Position numbers and translations under genes: made by a program | Source of the DNA: a virus | Taxonomy: Duplodnaviria; Heunggongvirae; Uroviricota; Caudoviricetes | IMG/VR virus record: IMGVR_UViG_2684622669_000011 | Direction: 5' to 3' (one strand) | DNA: 10,552 nucleotides | In this document: positions 952 through 9,374 of the stretch, piece by piece | Layout: every line of letters starts with the position of its first letter | Position numbering within the stretch: position 1 is the stretch's first letter | Notes under the pieces: model-generated | Told to the model about the DNA's origin: nothing | Databases searched by the model: none | What the model saw: only the letters and a program-made list of their open reading frames with translations

Positions 952-1315
952 AAATGCAGAAATGGCGCTTAGCTCCGCAATCGGAGAGCAGGTGGCAAAG
1001 ATTGCTGGTGCTGTGTGGATTCATAACCTTCATTCTACTGGTGAAGAGAAAATGGCAATTCAGACGCCAGAGGGACGCACCATTACTACATCTCTGAAGC
1101 CGTCAGATGTTTGTGATCTGATTTGCGCATTCATGTACCCAGCAATGAGGACTGTCCACGGCGATAAGTGGAAACTTGCGACAACCGCTGAATTTGATAT
1201 GTGGCTAAACAATGATGGCATGCTGACTGATTACGGAATAACCAAGTGGCAGATGCTGGTTAGCCATATCGCAAACGCTATAGACCACGTGGGGTACGGT
1301 GATGCGAAACATTGA
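944..1315 (+). CDS. Hypothetical small protein, 123 aa.
   Basis: ATG at 944 preceded by GGGAGG; stop TGA 1313-1315 overlaps the primase start, indicating translational coupling. No motif recognised. Confidence 0.65.
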   Translation: MRENAEMALSSAIGEQVAKIAGAVWIHNLHSTGEEKMAIQTPEGRTITTSLKPSDVCDLICAFMYPAMRTVHGDKWKLATTAEFDMWLNNDGMLTDYGITKWQMLVSHIANAIDHVGYGDAKH

Positions 1316-3569
1316 TCTTATCCGTCAGGTTATCAGTGCGTCTGAAAACAACTGGCCTCATGTGCTGGGCTGCCTGAACATAAATGTCCCTGACTCTCCG
1401 CGCCGTCATGCTCCCTGCCCTGCATGTGGGGGCAAAGATCGATTCCGGTTCGATGACAACGGGCGCGGTAGCTTCATCTGTAATCAGTGCGGCGCTGGTG
1501 ATGGGCTGGATTTAATTAAACGCGTAAATAACTGCGACACAACAGAGGCGGCGCTTCTTGCCGCTGATGTTCTGGGTATTGATTACCGGACAACGGAAAC
1601 ACCAGAAGCCACCAGCCAGAAACGGGAACAACTGGAATTTGATGACATGCGCAGAAAGGCTGTAAACGGCAAATCTGATTATCTGGTTGCGAAAGGGGTA
1701 GGTGATTTTACATTCCCCGTGTTGCCAGATGGATCTCTATTGCTGGCGCTGGTGGATAAATCCGGCGCAGTCACCGCAGCACAGACTATTACCTCACATG
1801 GTGAAAAAAGACTCCTGACAGGTTCGGCAAAGCGGGGGGCATATCACGCCATAAACGCACAGAAACGACCTCACAGCATCATAATTGCTGAGGGGGTGGC
1901 TACCGCCCTGTCGTGCCATTTAATTCGCCCTGACGCAATGACAGTGGCAGCAATCGACGCTGGCAACCTGTTGCCAGTAGCGGAAGTCATGCGCAGAACA
2001 TATCCACAGGCACAAATCATCATTGCCGCAGATAACGATCACCAGCAAGGAAACTCCGAAAGTGGAGGGATCAACACGGGGAAAGATGCCGCAGAGAGGG
2101 CCGCTATTTCCGTAGCTGGCTGGGTGTCTCTGCCACCGACTGACTATAAAGCCGACTGGAACGACTATCACCAACAACACGGGCTGGCGGCAGCCACAGC
2201 AGCATTTAAAGATTCGATGTACCAGCCACGGGGGAAAGGGGCGCAGGTGAAAAATCACAAACAGTCAGTCGGGGCGCTGAATGAGATCAGTTCTGGCGAG
2301 GTGTTAAGCGTTGATGAAATTGCTGTCCTCGAAGAAATCAACCGGACGTTTACGCATGTCACCATCGGCGGGAAACACAAGGTGGTGTCGCTAAAGCCTT
2401 CTCAAACCGGCGGTGTATCGCACGTTTTCGAGGATTTATCACAATTTCAGCATTATTTTCATCATAAACCGAGAGTCGCCAGAAAGCTGGCGGGATCGGC
2501 GTGGCTGTCATGGAGTGGGAAGAACTACAAGCCAGGAGGCGTAGGATTTTATCCAGTACCAGACAAATGCCCTGACGATGTTTTTAATCTGTATGAGGGG
2601 CTGGCACTGGAACCAATTGAAGGAGATTGCACGGTATACCTTAATCACCTGTTGCAGGTTGTCTGTGCCGGTAATGAGGAGGCATACCAATATCTTATCC
2701 AGTGGATGGCGCACATTATCCAAAAGCCTGATGAAAAACCGTCCGTGGCAATCGTGATGAAATCTGTCCCGGGCACAGGGAAAGGCACAACGGTTAAACC
2801 GCTGCTGCAAATACTGGGGCAGTACGCCGCCCACATTAACGGGGCGGGACATATTTCAGGGCGCTTCAATTCAATACTTGCTAACAAGCTACTGGTATTT
2901 GCTGACGAAGTGACGATCCACAAGCCGTCTGAAGCTGACAGACTTAAAGCGATTATTAGCGAACCGACGTTTAACCTTGAGCGCAAGGGAATTGATGCTG
3001 AACCAATGCCGAATTTTGCCCGGTTGATATTTGCCAGTAACAGCACACAGGTATTACAGGCAGGGATAAGAGAGCGTCGCTATCTCGTGCTTGAGCCATC
3101 TCCTGAAAAAGCACAGAGTCGGGAGTATTTTGATCGGCTGTACAGTTGGCTTAATGATGGCGGTGCCGCAAAGTTGCTTTGGCATCTTAAAGGGGTGGAT
3201 CTCTCAGGTTTTGACCCTCAACGAGCGCCACAGACCGATGCCTTACGTGAAGAAATCTTGCTGGGGCTGTCTGGCGTTGAATTGTTTCTTTATGGCGAGC
3301 TAATCAATGAACCTCCGTTTAATGGCGAAGTCCGTTTGTTTGCAAAGGATATGGTTAGTCGATTTGTAGCGTGGTCGCTTGAGCGTGGGGAAAAGCTTAA
3401 AGAGCCAGCAGCCAGATCACTACTGGGTAAATCACTTGCACAAATGGGGCTGGTGAAGCATGGAAGACCAGACCGAGGGAATGGCGTGTTCTACGAACTA
3501 CCAGAGGTCGGAGTTCTACAGGCTGCGTTTGCCCGTCTGATCGGTATGGGGGGTTATGATGTTTTTTAA
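1302..3569 (+). CDS. Primase-helicase of the phage/plasmid P4-alpha family (zinc-ribbon + Toprim primase + D5-like SF3 helicase), about 755 aa.
   Basis: Seen in the translation: zinc-ribbon CPACGG-KDRFRFDD-x9-CNQCG near the N-terminus; Toprim-like IIIAEGVATAL and IIIAADNDHQ acidic motifs; P-loop VMKSVPGTGKGT and Walker-B-like LLVFADEV. Start is either GTG 1299 (track) or ATG 1302; ATG 1302 is preferred because GGGG (1291-1294) sits 7 nt upstream. Followed immediately by iterons. Confidence 0.9.
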   Translation: MRNIDLIRQVISASENNWPHVLGCLNINVPDSPRRHAPCPACGGKDRFRFDDNGRGSFICNQCGAGDGLDLIKRVNNCDTTEAALLAADVLGIDYRTTETPEATSQKREQLEFDDMRRKAVNGKSDYLVAKGVGDFTFPVLPDGSLLLALVDKSGAVTAAQTITSHGEKRLLTGSAKRGAYHAINAQKRPHSIIIAEGVATALSCHLIRPDAMTVAAIDAGNLLPVAEVMRRTYPQAQIIIAADNDHQQGNSESGGINTGKDAAERAAISVAGWVSLPPTDYKADWNDYHQQHGLAAATAAFKDSMYQPRGKGAQVKNHKQSVGALNEISSGEVLSVDEIAVLEEINRTFTHVTIGGKHKVVSLKPSQTGGVSHVFEDLSQFQHYFHHKPRVARKLAGSAWLSWSGKNYKPGGVGFYPVPDKCPDDVFNLYEGLALEPIEGDCTVYLNHLLQVVCAGNEEAYQYLIQWMAHIIQKPDEKPSVAIVMKSVPGTGKGTTVKPLLQILGQYAAHINGAGHISGRFNSILANKLLVFADEVTIHKPSEADRLKAIISEPTFNLERKGIDAEPMPNFARLIFASNSTQVLQAGIRERRYLVLEPSPEKAQSREYFDRLYSWLNDGGAAKLLWHLKGVDLSGFDPQRAPQTDALREEILLGLSGVELFLYGELINEPPFNGEVRLFAKDMVSRFVAWSLERGEKLKEPAARSLLGKSLAQMGLVKHGRPDRGNGVFYELPEVGVLQAAFARLIGMGGYDVF

Positions 3570-3598: not shown

Positions 3599-3703
3599 AC
3601 CTGTACCACCTATACCACTTTGCTAATTCAGTATTAAAAACAGTGCGTTATAGTGGTACAGGTCAATATCTTACCTATACCAGACCTGTACCACCTATAC
3701 CAT
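3599..3703. repeat. Iteron-type replication origin: two near-identical 20-bp direct repeats flanking an AT-rich spacer that carries an inverted partial copy.
   Basis: ACCTGTACCACCTATACCAC at 3599-3618 and ACCTGTACCACCTATACCAT at 3684-3703 (19/20 identical); inverted GACCTGTACCAC on the minus strand at 3653-3664; partial ACCTATACCA at 3673-3682; AT-rich tract ttgctaattcagtattaaaaacag between them. Position directly 3' of the primase gene matches P4 ori/crr and PICI ori architecture. Confidence 0.6.
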
Positions 3704-5305: not shown

Positions 5306-5479
5306 ATGGCTATTTCAGTAAAGCCAGTATTGATAAGTGAGAAGCAAATGGAAGCGATAAAGAAAATTCAGGAGGAGCAGCGTAAAAAATCAGAGGTAGG
5401 AGTTGCGCCAACGATCCACGAAATTGCTCGGGGATTAATGGATAAGGCGCTGGCTTACACTTTAACTGGACGTGGGTAA
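5306..5479 (+). CDS. Small hypothetical protein, 57 aa, possibly a DNA-binding regulator; first gene of the accessory operon. Absent from the ORF track (below its length cutoff).
   Basis: ATG 5306 preceded by AGGGGG (5295-5300) at 5-nt spacing; stop TAA 5477-5479 lies 4 nt before the ATG of the next gene. Translation MAISVKPVLISEKQMEAIKKIQEEQRKKSEVGVAPTIHEIARGLMDKALAYTLTGRG has a short beta-like N-terminus followed by two predicted helices. Confidence 0.5.
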   Translation: MAISVKPVLISEKQMEAIKKIQEEQRKKSEVGVAPTIHEIARGLMDKALAYTLTGRG

Positions 5480-5483
5480 ATTT

Positions 5484-6827
5484 ATGGCTACGTGGCAACA
5501 GGGTATTAATTCTGGTGGTTTTCTGGCTGGCATCGGTACGCAAAATGAGAATGCGCCAAAGGCAAGCGACATTAACGCAACGCTTGGTCTGATCCGCGAA
5601 AACAATGAACTGGCTCGCTCAGGTGCAAATAACGTTGCTCTGACAGGTCTTCGTGGTCTGGCTGGAGTTGCTGACATTTATAAGCAGCAGCAACAGCAGG
5701 AACGTAAAGCGGCATTCCAGAAAGGTTATGCAGATGCTTATGCGTACGGTGACAGGGAGCAGATGCGTAATCTTATTACAGCATTCCCAGAAGAGTTTGA
5801 GGAAGTCCGTAAAGGGATGAGTTATGTCGATGATGCTCAAAGGGATGATTATGGCAATCTGGCGCTCAAAGCACAGGTAGCCTCATCGCTTGGTCAGGGC
5901 GCATTTGGCAGGTTCATGATGGATAATGAGCAGGAGATGCGTCGTTTAGGTATCCCTCCAGAAACTATTGCTGAAATGCAGGTTAATGACCCGCAGGGCT
6001 TCCAGCATTTCGCAGGTAATCTGGCGCTGTTTTCTCTCGGTCATGAGAAGTATTTCGATATCAAAGATCAAATGGAAGGTCGTCGACTTGAGCAAGGGCG
6101 ACTGGATGAAAGCATCCGTCAGGCTGACATGGAGAACGCGAGAGGATGGGCAAATATCCAGAACGCTCAACTAGACAGGGCTCAGCGAGCACAAATTCAC
6201 TCAGATGAGATGGGATTGAAGCTAATGGAGCTGGGGCAAAAAGGTAAGCCGTCAGCAGACTTAATTAAGGGATTAAATTCTGACATTACCAATTTTGGCA
6301 AAAATTATAACTCTGTCAGAGCGGCGGCAAACTCTCTGCAAGCCCTTAGCAAGGTAAATACTGGCGCTGCCCAACTTGGGATTATCTTCAACTACATGAA
6401 ATCTCTTGACCCGCAGTCAGTCGTTCGTGAAGGCGAACAGGTTCAGGTAATGCGGTCTGATGGCATATGGGGACAAATCAAAGGATACATAGACCAGCTT
6501 AATGCTGGAAACGGCCTGTCGCAGGAGGCAAAGGATAACATTGTTAACGCCGCAAAAATCAACGCCAATGCTATGGGGCAGCAGTTTAACCAGCAGGTTG
6601 ACGAGTATCTCGATACATATGGAGAAACTATTCCTCAGGGGCTAAGAAAAAGCCTTGAAAGAAGGAAAGCGAAGCTATTTGACGATGTTTCCGGGCAGCC
6701 TACATCACAGGCTGGCACTGGACAGGCAAAAGCGGCAACCGGAGGAATATCAGAAGGCGCAACGGCAACCAACCCTAAAACTGGTCAGAAAATCATTTAC
6801 AGGAACGGAAAATGGCAGCAAATGTAA
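5484..6827 (+). CDS. Hypothetical low-complexity protein, about 447 aa, Gln/Asn/Ala/Gly-rich and predicted largely helical; the track lists it as 451 aa from GTG 5472.
   Basis: Long ORF with a biased but coding-like composition; ATG 5484 is favoured over GTG 5472 because it sits 4 nt after the upstream stop. Contains a QQQQQ run (CAG/CAA tract 5685-5699); no P-loop or catalytic motif recognised; 3' end overlaps the next gene by 16 nt. Confidence 0.8.
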   Translation: MATWQQGINSGGFLAGIGTQNENAPKASDINATLGLIRENNELARSGANNVALTGLRGLAGVADIYKQQQQQERKAAFQKGYADAYAYGDREQMRNLITAFPEEFEEVRKGMSYVDDAQRDDYGNLALKAQVASSLGQGAFGRFMMDNEQEMRRLGIPPETIAEMQVNDPQGFQHFAGNLALFSLGHEKYFDIKDQMEGRRLEQGRLDESIRQADMENARGWANIQNAQLDRAQRAQIHSDEMGLKLMELGQKGKPSADLIKGLNSDITNFGKNYNSVRAAANSLQALSKVNTGAAQLGIIFNYMKSLDPQSVVREGEQVQVMRSDGIWGQIKGYIDQLNAGNGLSQEAKDNIVNAAKINANAMGQQFNQQVDEYLDTYGETIPQGLRKSLERRKAKLFDDVSGQPTSQAGTGQAKAATGGISEGATATNPKTGQKIIYRNGKWQQM

Positions 6828-8929
6828 TCTTACCGGAAGGTTTTGTGCTCGATGAACAACCTGATAACTCACAGTTTCCTGATAGTTCACAGCTTCCTGA
6901 TGGTTTTGTGCTTGATGCCCAACCAGAACAGCAGCAATCACCTTTGGTTTCACCAGAGGAAAATTCCAGACAGGAAAATGTTGTTAATAATGCTAACGGT
7001 TTCGACCGTTTTATGTATGGCGTTCTCAGTGGATTGATGGATGTTGGTAAAGGTGTTGGCCTGTTTCAGGATATGACACCAGAAGAGCAAGCAGCAATTC
7101 AGTCTCTACAGCAGAAGTTAGCGGCAAAACCATCAACCGCACAAGATGTTGGTGAGTTCGTTGGACAAGCAGCGCCATTTGTTAGTGGTGGTGGGATTAT
7201 TTCTCAGGTTCCCAAAGGGGCGGCAAGACTGGCTGCCGCCGCAGGGCTTGGTGCTGGAGAAGGGGCTATTGTAGCCAATGGAACAAATAGCGATGTTGCT
7301 TCCGGCGCTGCTATTGGCGCTGTGGCTGGCCCTGTAGCCGAACTTGCTGGCCCTGCAATTAATAAAATAGCTGGGAAATTAACCAAGAAGAATGTTTCTT
7401 CGATTCCAGATATTGAGGGGATTACTCCTGCCGAAGAGAAAATTCGTAAGTTATCTGCACAAGGCAACCCAAATCTTGCCTCTTCGCTTGAAGGGCTAGA
7501 TCTAAAACCTCAGAAAGAAATTGTTGAGGCTGCAAATAGGCTTCATGTTGATTCAGTTCTTCCTTCTCATTTATCAGGAAATGAGCAATACCAAGCTGTA
7601 GAGCAAGCCCTAAAGTCACGGACAGGATCAGCGTTAAAAGCTCAAGAAGATAAAGCAATAAGCGAATTAGCCTCTAGTGCTGGCAAGATAATCGATGATG
7701 TTGCTGGTGCGCCAGATGCGTTAGCTATGAGCGAAAAATATATTTATCAGATAAATAGTAGAATGGAAGCACTAAAAAACCGTAGTGATCAGTTATATAA
7801 ACGTGTTGATTCCGCTCTATCACCAAGAACAAAAGTCGAAGCAAATAACACAAGCACTATGCTGGAAAAAATCGCTGATGATTTAGGAGGGTGGGATAAT
7901 CTTGACCCAATAGAAAAGCGAGTTTTTACAGCAATAAACCCCGGCCCAGATAGCATCCTAACGTATGCAAATTTAAACAGGCAAAGGCGTTTAGTTGGTG
8001 ATGCCCTAAATAAAAAGCAGGGGCCATACAAAGATGCTGATAAAGAAGCGCTATCAAGACTATATGGAGCTTTAGCTGAAGACCAAAAATCTGTCTTATC
8101 CAATACTGGATACTTGCGAGATTTCGAAGTCGCACAACGCCTTGTAGCTATGAGAAAAAACTTAGAAAGGCAAATGGTAAATCTTCGCGGGAAAACACTT
8201 AATGGGGATATAGCGTATAAAGTAACGAATTCTCTTCAATCTATGGCAAAAGGTGATGCGAGAGGGTTTCGTGAGATTATGCAAAATACTCCATCAAGAA
8301 CATTGCGAAGGGAGCTAGTAGGAACAGCATTAAGAGATATGCTTTCCTCTGGGAAGCGTGGGGCCGACTTTAATCCATCTGGCTTTGCAGATTGGTGGCA
8401 AAACTTGCAACACAGTGGACAGCTAAAGACTTTGGCTGAACATTTGCCAAAAGAAACAATGAGCGGACTATATGATGTATACAAAGTTGCCAGAGCAATA
8501 AAAAATGCTAAAGCGCATGAAATATCTACTGGTAAGCTGAATGAGTTTGTAAACAGATTTAATCGGGTAACAGCTCCATACGAACTAGCAGCAAAACACA
8601 TTCAAAAAATAGGCACGATGGTAGGCGCTCATTTTGGATCGCTTGGAGCCATTGCTGGGGCTGATATTGGAGCAAGATTGGCGAGTAAAGCTCGATTAGC
8701 TGGTGGAGCAGGGGCGGCTGATGCTGCGGATAAATTAATTGCCTCGCCAGCCTTCCAGAGCGCAGTAAAAAATCTACACGGAAAAGCGCCTGGGCACATT
8801 GTTGATTCACGTATCAGGCGCTCCCCTCAATGGAAGAGTTTTTTTAACTCTCTTCCTGAACAGGAAAAACGGACCATCGCCAGACTGGGCATCATTACTT
8901 GGCTATCTAATGATCCAGATAATGACTAG
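6812..8929 (+). CDS. Hypothetical large protein, 705 aa, with an N-terminal tandem repeat (LPEGFVLDEQ / PDNSQF / PDSSQL / PDGFVLDAQ), two Gly/Ala-rich glycine-zipper-like segments and an AT-rich central region.
   Basis: ATG 6812 with an AGGA SD (6801-6804); overlaps the stop of the upstream gene, indicating coupling. No Walker A, HExxH or other catalytic signature seen. Gly/Ala-rich stretches at residues about 118-189 (nt 7163-7378) and 599-642 (nt 8606-8737). Stop TAG 8927-8929. Confidence 0.85.
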   Translation: MAANVILPEGFVLDEQPDNSQFPDSSQLPDGFVLDAQPEQQQSPLVSPEENSRQENVVNNANGFDRFMYGVLSGLMDVGKGVGLFQDMTPEEQAAIQSLQQKLAAKPSTAQDVGEFVGQAAPFVSGGGIISQVPKGAARLAAAAGLGAGEGAIVANGTNSDVASGAAIGAVAGPVAELAGPAINKIAGKLTKKNVSSIPDIEGITPAEEKIRKLSAQGNPNLASSLEGLDLKPQKEIVEAANRLHVDSVLPSHLSGNEQYQAVEQALKSRTGSALKAQEDKAISELASSAGKIIDDVAGAPDALAMSEKYIYQINSRMEALKNRSDQLYKRVDSALSPRTKVEANNTSTMLEKIADDLGGWDNLDPIEKRVFTAINPGPDSILTYANLNRQRRLVGDALNKKQGPYKDADKEALSRLYGALAEDQKSVLSNTGYLRDFEVAQRLVAMRKNLERQMVNLRGKTLNGDIAYKVTNSLQSMAKGDARGFREIMQNTPSRTLRRELVGTALRDMLSSGKRGADFNPSGFADWWQNLQHSGQLKTLAEHLPKETMSGLYDVYKVARAIKNAKAHEISTGKLNEFVNRFNRVTAPYELAAKHIQKIGTMVGAHFGSLGAIAGADIGARLASKARLAGGAGAADAADKLIASPAFQSAVKNLHGKAPGHIVDSRIRRSPQWKSFFNSLPEQEKRTIARLGIITWLSNDPDND
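6860..6895 (+). repeat. In-frame 18-bp tandem repeat (two units plus a partial third) inside the 5' end of the 705-aa gene.
   Basis: CCTGATAACTCACAGTTT (6860-6877) followed by CCTGATAGTTCACAGCTT (6878-6895) and CCTGATGG; bracketed by the 16-bp direct repeat GGTTTTGTGCT(C/T)GATG at 6837-6852 and 6901-6916. Confidence 0.7.
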
Positions 8930-8948: not shown

Positions 8949-9374
8949 TCAATCTTTATTCTTTGAAATAGAGTCATTGATCTTTTCGAAACACCAATGA
9001 AATCCACAAAAGAGAGCTACACCAATATAACAATACAAAACTATCAACCACCTTTCAGTGTCCGAAGGGTAAAAAACATCAATTACATAAGCAACACCAA
9101 TTGGTATTAATGCTAGTAATAACATCGACACAGGACGTACAAACTTCTGAACTATATCAATTTTATAGAACCACAAGGCGGTATGTTTAATGATATAAGT
9201 AAAGATGGCTGCGCCAATAATGGCAAAAAACACCATCGATAAAGTCGGGTATAACTTTGCGACAATTAAACCCAACAAAATAATTATAACTGCCTGCCCC
9301 CTCACACCAACCCTCCCTTTAGCTTTGTTTAGAATGGCAATCATCATATATCCAAGACATGGCATTTGGTACAT
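8949..9374 (-). CDS. Small multi-pass membrane protein (141 aa from ATG 9374, or about 118 aa from GTG 9305), convergent with the 705-aa gene.
   Basis: Translation has three to four strongly hydrophobic helices (VIIILLGLIVAKL, MVFFAIIGAAIFTYII, VSMLLLALIPIGVAYVI, WLIVLYCYIGVALFCGF). No SD before ATG 9374, but a strong AAGGGAGGG (9312-9320) precedes the in-frame GTG 9305 at 6-nt spacing. Very AT-rich. Confidence 0.6.
   Translation of the reverse strand: MYQMPCLGYMMIAILNKAKGRVGVRGQAVIIILLGLIVAKLYPTLSMVFFAIIGAAIFTYIIKHTALWFYKIDIVQKFVRPVSMLLLALIPIGVAYVIDVFYPSDTERWLIVLYCYIGVALFCGFHWCFEKINDSISKNKD

Follow-up and report, generated by a model that had tools for sequence, protein, structure and literature searches.

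The gp20-gp16 pair and its tandem repeat

The DNA analysed here is a stretch of 10,552 nucleotides (nt) held in IMG/VR as a viral record (IMGVR_UViG_2684622669_000011); "the window" below means this whole stretch. The window is an Escherichia coli integrase/primase island and no phage genome, and about 140 complete E. coli chromosomes match it. Two adjacent genes in it encode homologues of the DNA-ejection proteins gp20 and gp16 of phage P22, and the second of them opens with a short in-frame tandem repeat (Table 1). Judged by homology and gene order, this open reading frame (ORF) of 705 amino acids (aa) is a member of the P22 gp16 family; we collected 140 gp16-type homologues, many with the Pfam family PF26808 (Phage_P22_gp16). 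The mechanically called ORF of the gp20-type gene starts at a GTG at 5472, its RefSeq label is 'phage DNA ejection protein', and its product is 74% identical to gp20 of phage Kapi1. We also observed a sharp internal mosaic block in this gene: its middle part (window 5697-6065, residues ~70-190) has no nucleotide match in the compared phages, and both of its ends are 89-95% identical to them.

Table 1. Features of the gp20-gp16 pair, with window positions
Feature	Position	Strand	Basis or comparison
gp20-type ejection protein, 447 aa from the annotated ATG	5484..6827	+	PF16928 Inj_translocase, E=6.6e-73
Conserved gp20 C-terminal tail, TATNPKTGQKIIYRNGKWQQM	6762..6824	+	52-88% identical in most divergent loci
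Overlap of gp20 stop and gp16 start, 16 nt	6812..6827	+	also 16 nt in most divergent loci
P22 gp16-type DNA-transfer/ejection protein, 705 aa	6812..8929	+	phrog_6704, E=1.4e-174; phrog_770 'DNA transfer protein', E=1.2e-50
Motif copy 1, LPEGFVLD, residues 7-14	6830..6853	+	translation; homologue alignment; profile
Spacer unit 1, PDNSQF, residues 17-22	6860..6877	+	1 nt from the phage single unit CCTGATAACTCACAGCTT
Spacer unit 2, PDSSQL, residues 23-28 (extra copy)	6878..6895	+	2 nt from the ancestral unit
Motif copy 2, LPDGFVLD, residues 28-35	6893..6916	+	translation; homologue alignment; profile

The first-pass annotation, made from the letters alone, described an 18-bp unit present twice with a partial third copy, and this was borne out by Tandem Repeats Finder (6860-6901, period 18, 2.3 copies, 87% matches, score 63), by a repeat search and by shuffling. 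The full units, CCTGATAACTCACAGTTT and CCTGATAGTTCACAGCTT, share 15 of 18 positions; the partial third copy, CCTGATGGTTTTGTGCTT, belongs to the beginning of the second motif and agrees with unit 2 at 13 of 18. Codon shuffles of the ORF reached the observed best 18-nt tandem once in 1000 trials; none of 1000 reached 21/24 over the period-18 span, and none of 1000 produced a 32-nt direct repeat within 100 nt. The peptide reading given at the outset, MAANVILPEGFVLDEQ-PDNSQF-PDSSQL-PDGFVLDAQ, is correct. A 16-bp repeat said to bracket the units is present too, although its coordinates had been 2 and 1 bases off (6839-6854 and 6902-6917) and its full extent is 32 nt, with 26 of 32 positions identical between 6833-6864 and 6896-6927.

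What the arms of this outer repeat encode is a twin peptide motif, LPxGFxLD; in the looser form P.GF.(hydrophobic)(D/E), the copies start at residues 8 and 29. An AlphaFold 2 (AF2) model built from a 39-sequence alignment gives the gp16-type protein a helical core at residues ~230-700, with a predicted local distance difference test score (pLDDT) mostly of 80-95, and a pLDDT below 50 at residues 1-85 and 103-205. Residues 1-47 score 32-40 and have no secondary structure. The two copies are thus predicted to be short linear motifs in a disordered N-terminal arm.

The number of spacer units between the motifs differs between lineages, as the earlier suggestion of copy-number differences among homologues anticipated, and is uniform within each. 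In the homologue alignment, Kapi1 and all other aligned homologues have a 6-residue gap exactly at spacer unit 2. A single PDNSQL unit is found in the Lederbergvirus phages Kapi1 and E212, in 43 E. coli prophages and in 42 IMG/VR loci; Kapi1, E212 and three of the E. coli prophages encode MAT.VGLPEGFVLD.QPDNSQLPDGFVLD. Two units occur in the window allele and in one metagenomic contig, L094. Searching complete E. coli genomes with window 6760-7010, we obtained 96 records at ≥95% identity, all full length and hence with two units, and a second lineage of 43 records at 80-90% identity. Among the matches listed for the latter, 13 of 13 are exactly 18 nt shorter, and all 43 appear to carry one unit. 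No E. coli record fell in the band of 90-95% identity, where an 18-nt indel allele would lie. The 44 IMG/VR loci of these lineages likewise divide into 2 with two units and 42 with one, without polymorphism inside a lineage.

Where only one unit is present, a 6-bp direct repeat, CCTGAT, stands on either side of it; such an arrangement is the usual substrate for slippage or microhomology, and the duplication may well have come about in this way during replication. Contig L094 is the closest full relative of the gp20-gp16 cassette (84% identical over window 5484-8861) and is nucleotide-identical to it over the repeat region. Because this contig also carries coat, gp4, gp10, gp14, gp7, gp20 and gp16 genes, a genuine P22-like virion cluster, the cassette with its duplication is phage-derived. 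The duplication arose in a P22-like phage lineage and entered the E. coli island together with the complete gp20-gp16 cassette. The close DNA similarity of the copies had been read as a sign of recent duplication; yet 3 of 18 positions distinguish the units, and a cassette only 84% identical has the two-unit allele as well, so that the event is not very recent. Nor do the arms of the outer repeat look like a recent DNA duplication, for in other phages they are identical at only 21-23 of 32 positions and differ at synonymous sites. The duplication is old, stable and fixed within its lineage, and the region is no hypervariable tract.

The duplication moves the start-to-start spacing of the motifs from 15 residues, as in Kapi1-type proteins, to 21. 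Because spacers in nature vary widely in length (about 3 to 15 residues), the gain of six residues most likely has no effect or retunes the reach only mildly; by itself the spacer duplication is an ordinary, tolerated expansion. These residues, PDNSQFPDSSQL, could serve as a mass-spectrometry marker separating this gp16 from the one-unit phage versions.

Twin motifs and the tail/arm junction

The motif reaches far beyond the P22-like phages. In an alignment of twin-motif homologues, L, P, G, F, L and D are invariant and the spacer varies in both sequence and length. That the DNA arms differ synonymously while the peptide stays invariant argues that selection acts on the peptide. We searched the N-terminal arm profile exhaustively against 1.84 billion representative proteins and obtained 261 clusters at E<=1e-3; among the 150 best matches, 97 of the 147 newly returned proteins have at least two motif copies, starting within residue 12. 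The exhaustive search was needed, as a word-indexed search with a 47-column N-terminal profile returned six short fragments only. A tblastn search of cultured phages with a 34-aa motif peptide found just six close relatives and is too insensitive to describe the distribution.

Proteins with the twin motif range from 390 to 3200 aa, and their bodies are mutually unrelated. PHROG matches of the bodies include DNA transfer/ejection protein, transglycosylase, endolysin and internal virion protein; Pfam matches include SLT, Hydrolase_2, LPD3 and ART. The spacing between the first two motif starts has its mode at 15-16 residues and lies mostly between 11 and 23, a range that includes the 21 of the window. 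Some proteins have 3-7 copies. Four very large proteins of 1200-2200 aa (P0134, P0216, P0210 and P0256) open with motif-plus-spacer units in 3-7 tandem copies, LPEGFTLDEPQSG being repeated seven times at period 13 in P0134; in other lineages, then, the motif itself has been amplified in frame. Other matches, large proteins with many internal repeats whose best-matching stretches span only part of the profile, were set aside as probably unrelated; several have no strict P.GF motif, and one has PEGY. Judged by these comparisons, the twin motif is an ancient, selected repeat, placed at the extreme N-terminus of the product encoded after a gp20-like gene across a very wide range of phages. The proposal of a repeated interaction motif therefore holds in part: a motif of interaction type is present, but it is LPxGFxLD and not PDNSQ(F/L).

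Pfam has no model for the motif, and PF26808 is recorded as well for homologues that have a P22-type N-terminus without it. The strings GFVLD and PDGFVLD were not found in the searchable literature, and among the papers listed for the four motif strings the matches to PEGFV or LPEGF are few, unrelated and non-phage. Targeted literature searches returned no description of the twin motif or of the tail cassette described next.

The motif is coupled to a feature of the preceding gene. The motif led us to 34 divergent IMG/VR loci, and in every one its gene lies directly after another ORF, which phmmer identifies as gp20 in 26 of them. The upstream ORF ends in (E)G.TATNP.TG.K(I/L)(I/V)(F/Y)R(G/N)G.W(Q/V)P. 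in 33 of the 34 twin-motif loci. Relative to the window, this tail is typically 52-88% identical in the divergent loci, as against 21-37% for the gp20 bodies and about 25% for the gp16 bodies. The reverse search, with a TATNPxTG DNA pattern in IMG/VR, gave 32 tail-type matches, of which 25 are followed by an ORF with at least two strict motifs; most of the others have degenerate copies there, and the motif occurred after none of 76 out-of-context matches. The window conforms, with at least two motifs in the first ~40 residues of its gp16 and an upstream gp20 that ends in TATNPKTGQKIIYRNGKWQQM.

A sample assembled without reference to motif or tail gave the same association. Among 80 loci picked by the conserved gp20 N-terminal domain (located with a six-sequence alignment, a 12-sequence one being too divergent), 31 have both tail and twin motif, 45 have neither, and none is mixed; the tail was never seen where the downstream N-terminus is of another type. 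Within the 45 non-twin loci we found three other recurrent tail/arm pairs. In the P22-type pair (P22 and L091), a gp20 tail GSYTSKSGIQFTVE, of the form GSYTSKSGI(K/Q)FTVE, accompanies an arm MKVTANGKTFTFPDG, of the form MKVTANGKTF.FPDGTS. The Sf6-type pair (Sf6, L087 and L297) joins a tail ..FSSLWGD to an arm MAKAWKDVIASPQYQ, and the third (L088 and L296) joins LSDD.LI.KYLGG. to MAYSREQLMTALRNAD, of the form MAY(D/S)REQLM. At least four alternative cassette types therefore exist.

Two homologues record exchanges of this junction relative to the same gp16 body. P0113 has an Sf6-type arm, and P0106 an MAYDREQLM-type arm, on the same downstream region (..EENARQENVVNNANGFDRF..) as in the window, and the gp20 genes beside them carry the matching tails; P0106 keeps only a single decayed motif, PPNGFALD. 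Taken together, the comparisons indicate that gp20 tail and gp16 arm behave as one exchangeable, co-inherited cassette. We also looked for covariation between tail and motif residues, but the 50 unique pairs are too invariant for this, and at the few sites that do vary the signal is confounded by lineage effects.

The known relatives of the window pair differ from it at different points. P22 shares the gene order, with gp20 directly before gp16, and a homologous gp16 body; its gp16, however, starts MKVTANGKTFNFPDGTS and its gp20 ends GSYTSKSGIKFTVE, another junction cassette, and unlike the P22 genes the window pair belongs to an island that lacks gp7, gp14 and any capsid or tail genes. Kapi1 and E212 have the same twin motif and tail, with a DNA identity to the window of about 90% across the N-terminal ~180 residues of gp16 and the C-terminal half of gp20. 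They differ in having one PDNSQL unit and a gp16 body that is of another sequence type from residue ~190 onwards, leaving an overall identity of 41%. The tandem duplication is thus ordinary, and the protein belongs to a known gp16 family, here outside a virion gene cluster; the tail/arm junction cassette is apparently undescribed.

Possible roles of arm, tail and spacer

The reading we prefer, and hold to be moderately probable, combines a fixed spacer duplication between conserved motifs with docking of the gp16 arm on the gp20 tail, the spacer being neutral or mildly retuned. The two LPxGFxLD copies would dock gp16 onto cognate gp20 tails during construction of the trans-envelope DNA channel, or perhaps earlier, within the capsid, and this docking would set which gp16 works with which gp20. 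Three published findings agree with it. In the P22 family, the combinations of gp20 and gp16 are mosaic and must be cognate to work: each of the two proteins enters virions without the other, but function requires both to come from one phage, and Sf6 gp16 is packaged into P22 particles and is inactive without Sf6 gp20 (PMC10883804). An in situ study of P22 reports that gp7*, gp20 and then gp16 assemble sequentially on the tail hub and that gp16 shows extracytoplasmic complementation (PMC13622523). For T7, an extended N-terminal 'molecular tape' of gp16 has been found to bind the gp15 tube (PMC8954989). This arrangement, in which an N-terminal segment of an inner-membrane ejection protein cements a periplasmic tube protein, serves as the model here. 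T7 gp16 differs in having no sequence relationship to the window protein and in that its segment follows the SLT domain, and the contact proposed for the window is inferred. The P22 virion holds about 12 gp16 and about 30 gp20 molecules (PMC8402733), and from these numbers one may speculate that the two motifs of each gp16 could engage two tails.

Several points weigh against a direct contact. Tail and arm adjoin each other in the DNA and share no homology from one cassette type to the next, so that recombination moves them only together; their co-occurrence could arise without mutual binding and alone is no proof of contact. One twin-motif locus, L070, has no tail. The changes by which P22 escapes SieA, and which link gp16 to gp20, lie at gp20 338-350 and gp16 532-546 and not in the tail or the N-terminus. 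Sequence searches of the PDB with gp20 and with the gp16 family profile gave no match, and a Foldseek comparison of the AF2 model with the PDB returned nothing below E=0.4.

The first two of these points also fit a different possibility, in our view less probable, in which motif and tail each bind a third partner and travel together by virtue of DNA adjacency, recombination being unable to split them. The motif would then act as a procapsid packaging signal, with scaffold, portal barrel or coat interior as candidate partners, or would contact a host envelope component after ejection. In favour of this is its position as an extreme N-terminal tag on very different bodies, enzymes included. In phage T4, the internal proteins (IPs) have capsid-targeting sequences, which the motif tag resembles. 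On the other side, Sf6 gp16, with another N-terminal type, is packaged in P22 yet non-functional without Sf6 gp20 (PMC10883804), which points to gp20-gp16 matching after assembly rather than to packaging specific to the N-terminus. The leftover motif of P0106, moreover, has decayed after cassette replacement, as if its partner had left with the old tail.

A bolder form of the docking reading, which we regard as unlikely, would have tail and arm form a 'docking code', perhaps through a small shared beta-sheet, that sets the partners in the channel, admits unrelated cargo and lets the island ride on or sabotage helper phages. If true, the code would span a very wide range of short-tailed phages, with SLT, endolysin, ART and polyvalent proteins as cargo, and the island at yicC-dinD would carry a matched gp20-gp16 pair without gp7 to ride in, or sabotage, P22-like helper virions. 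The need for cognate gp16 and gp20 is known from genetics, and the tail/arm cassettes are a testable candidate for the specificity determinant. By the cassette rule, the third ejection protein can also be located in uncultured podoviruses where the bodies of the proteins cannot be recognised. The interest of the repeat thus lies in the junction module that it exposed, and in a matched pair residing in a satellite-like island, more than in the repeat itself.

The spacer duplication could also be adaptive, a longer tether reaching another partner spacing or aiding escape from an exclusion system. The two-unit allele is unchanged in the phage contig and the island lineage, and spacings of at least 21 residues make up the upper ~9% of the natural distribution; but spacers are highly variable in length and sequence, as expected of a passive linker, and the gp20 tail beside the two-unit allele is ordinary. 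We judge this improbable.

More doubtful still is a slippage-prone, in-frame variable-number tandem repeat (VNTR), a contingency tract diversifying the ejection protein; the first-pass annotation had suggested that this could be a variable region. Like the contingency repeats of bacterial and phage surface proteins, the window has a tandem coding unit that is a multiple of three; copy number is 1 or 2 depending on lineage, and motif-plus-spacer units are amplified in related proteins such as P0134. Unlike those repeats, it has two diverged copies (2.3 by Tandem Repeats Finder, rather than several near-identical units), and there is no sign of ongoing change, with no polymorphism in the 96 + 43 complete E. 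coli genomes or the 44 IMG/VR loci and the same two-unit allele in a cassette 16% diverged overall.

That the junction is conserved as a nucleic-acid element (translational coupling, a frameshift site or RNA structure) is barely credible: the overlap of gp20 stop and gp16 start is 16 nt in most loci, but it is 1, 10, 19 or 34 nt, or replaced by a small gap, in the remaining divergent ones, the motif copies are free to vary at synonymous sites under an invariant peptide, and conservation extends beyond the overlap for about 60 nt on its upstream side and 100 nt on its downstream side.

The island around the pair

In E. coli ACN001 the island is ~18 kb long and lies at the site yicC-dinD (L001 8368-25647). 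It contains an integrase, a small helix-turn-helix (HTH) protein, AntA/B, ash, a DUF5906 primase, gp20-gp16, a small membrane protein, AbiD and PerC. In strain EcPF7 (L298) an island at yicC-dinD too has another primase and other cargo, with the gp20-gp16 cassette unchanged; an Icd-like gene is among the annotations of these two loci. The replication module thus varies by strain, between DUF5906 and TOPRIM/DUF927 primases, and the cassette is conserved. The cassette (window 5472-8929) sits in the cargo region of the island in ~90-100 complete E. coli genomes.

With an integrase, a primase/replication module and small regulators but no full virion gene set, the ACN001 and EcPF7 islands have the composition of a phage satellite of P4-like or PICI-like kind. 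The annotations of the ACN001 and EcPF7 islands include no capsid or tail genes, and none of P4 sid/psu/delta or the packaging-redirection genes of phage-inducible chromosomal islands (PICI), although no profile search was aimed at the latter two groups. No remnants of gp7 or gp14 were found in the window by tblastn, and a 245-aa island ORF tested as a gp7 homologue was rejected. The window pair accordingly lies outside a P22-like virion cluster (gp14, gp7, gp20, gp16, tailspike), in which the close relative P0002 does sit. Homology to P22-like phages starts exactly at the gp20 start (window 5474-5484). A scan for promoters and terminators around the cassette gave nothing above shuffles.

Of the ejection proteins, gp16 and gp20 are the ones reported to need a cognate partner, gp7 being interchangeable. 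That the island holds a matched gp20-gp16 pair without gp7 suggests, from gene content, a satellite that may ride in or poison P22-like helper virions. We found no paper on satellites with ejection proteins.

Other features of the island and its surroundings were recorded alongside. A 9-bp unit, ACCTATACC, forms arrays at window 3599-3618 and 3673-3702 (2.2 and 2.9 copies); they lie just 3′ of the primase gene (1299-3569) and may be iterons or the island origin. Directly after gp16, on the opposite strand, a 141-aa ORF with many hydrophobic stretches occupies window 8949-9374 (-). In P22 and L296 this position after gp16 is held by sieA (superinfection exclusion); the ORF was considered as SieA and rejected, there being no detectable similarity. 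It has no PHROG or PADLOC match, its sole match being a sub-threshold one to Bax1-I, and no PADLOC model matches gp20 or gp16 either.

The abortive-infection gene AbiD lies 3′ of the cassette in ACN001 (L001 23681-24643; PADLOC E=2.7e-57). It begins at about window 10180, extends past the window end and is missing from the EcPF7 island, so that the region downstream of the cassette behaves as a variable hotspot for defence and cargo genes. Decayed versions of the locus occur in some E. coli genomes (P0003, P0004 and P0043; H28-H32). In one form an integrase Arm-domain is joined to the C-terminal 59% of the gp16-type protein; in others the gp20 N-terminus is joined to the C-terminal part of gp16, or IS1 insertions lie beside the cassette. 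A few kb from the island in ACN001, between slmA and pyrE, a gene annotated as 'reverse transcriptase family protein' (L001 4509-5468) may, on that annotation alone, belong to a retron-type element.

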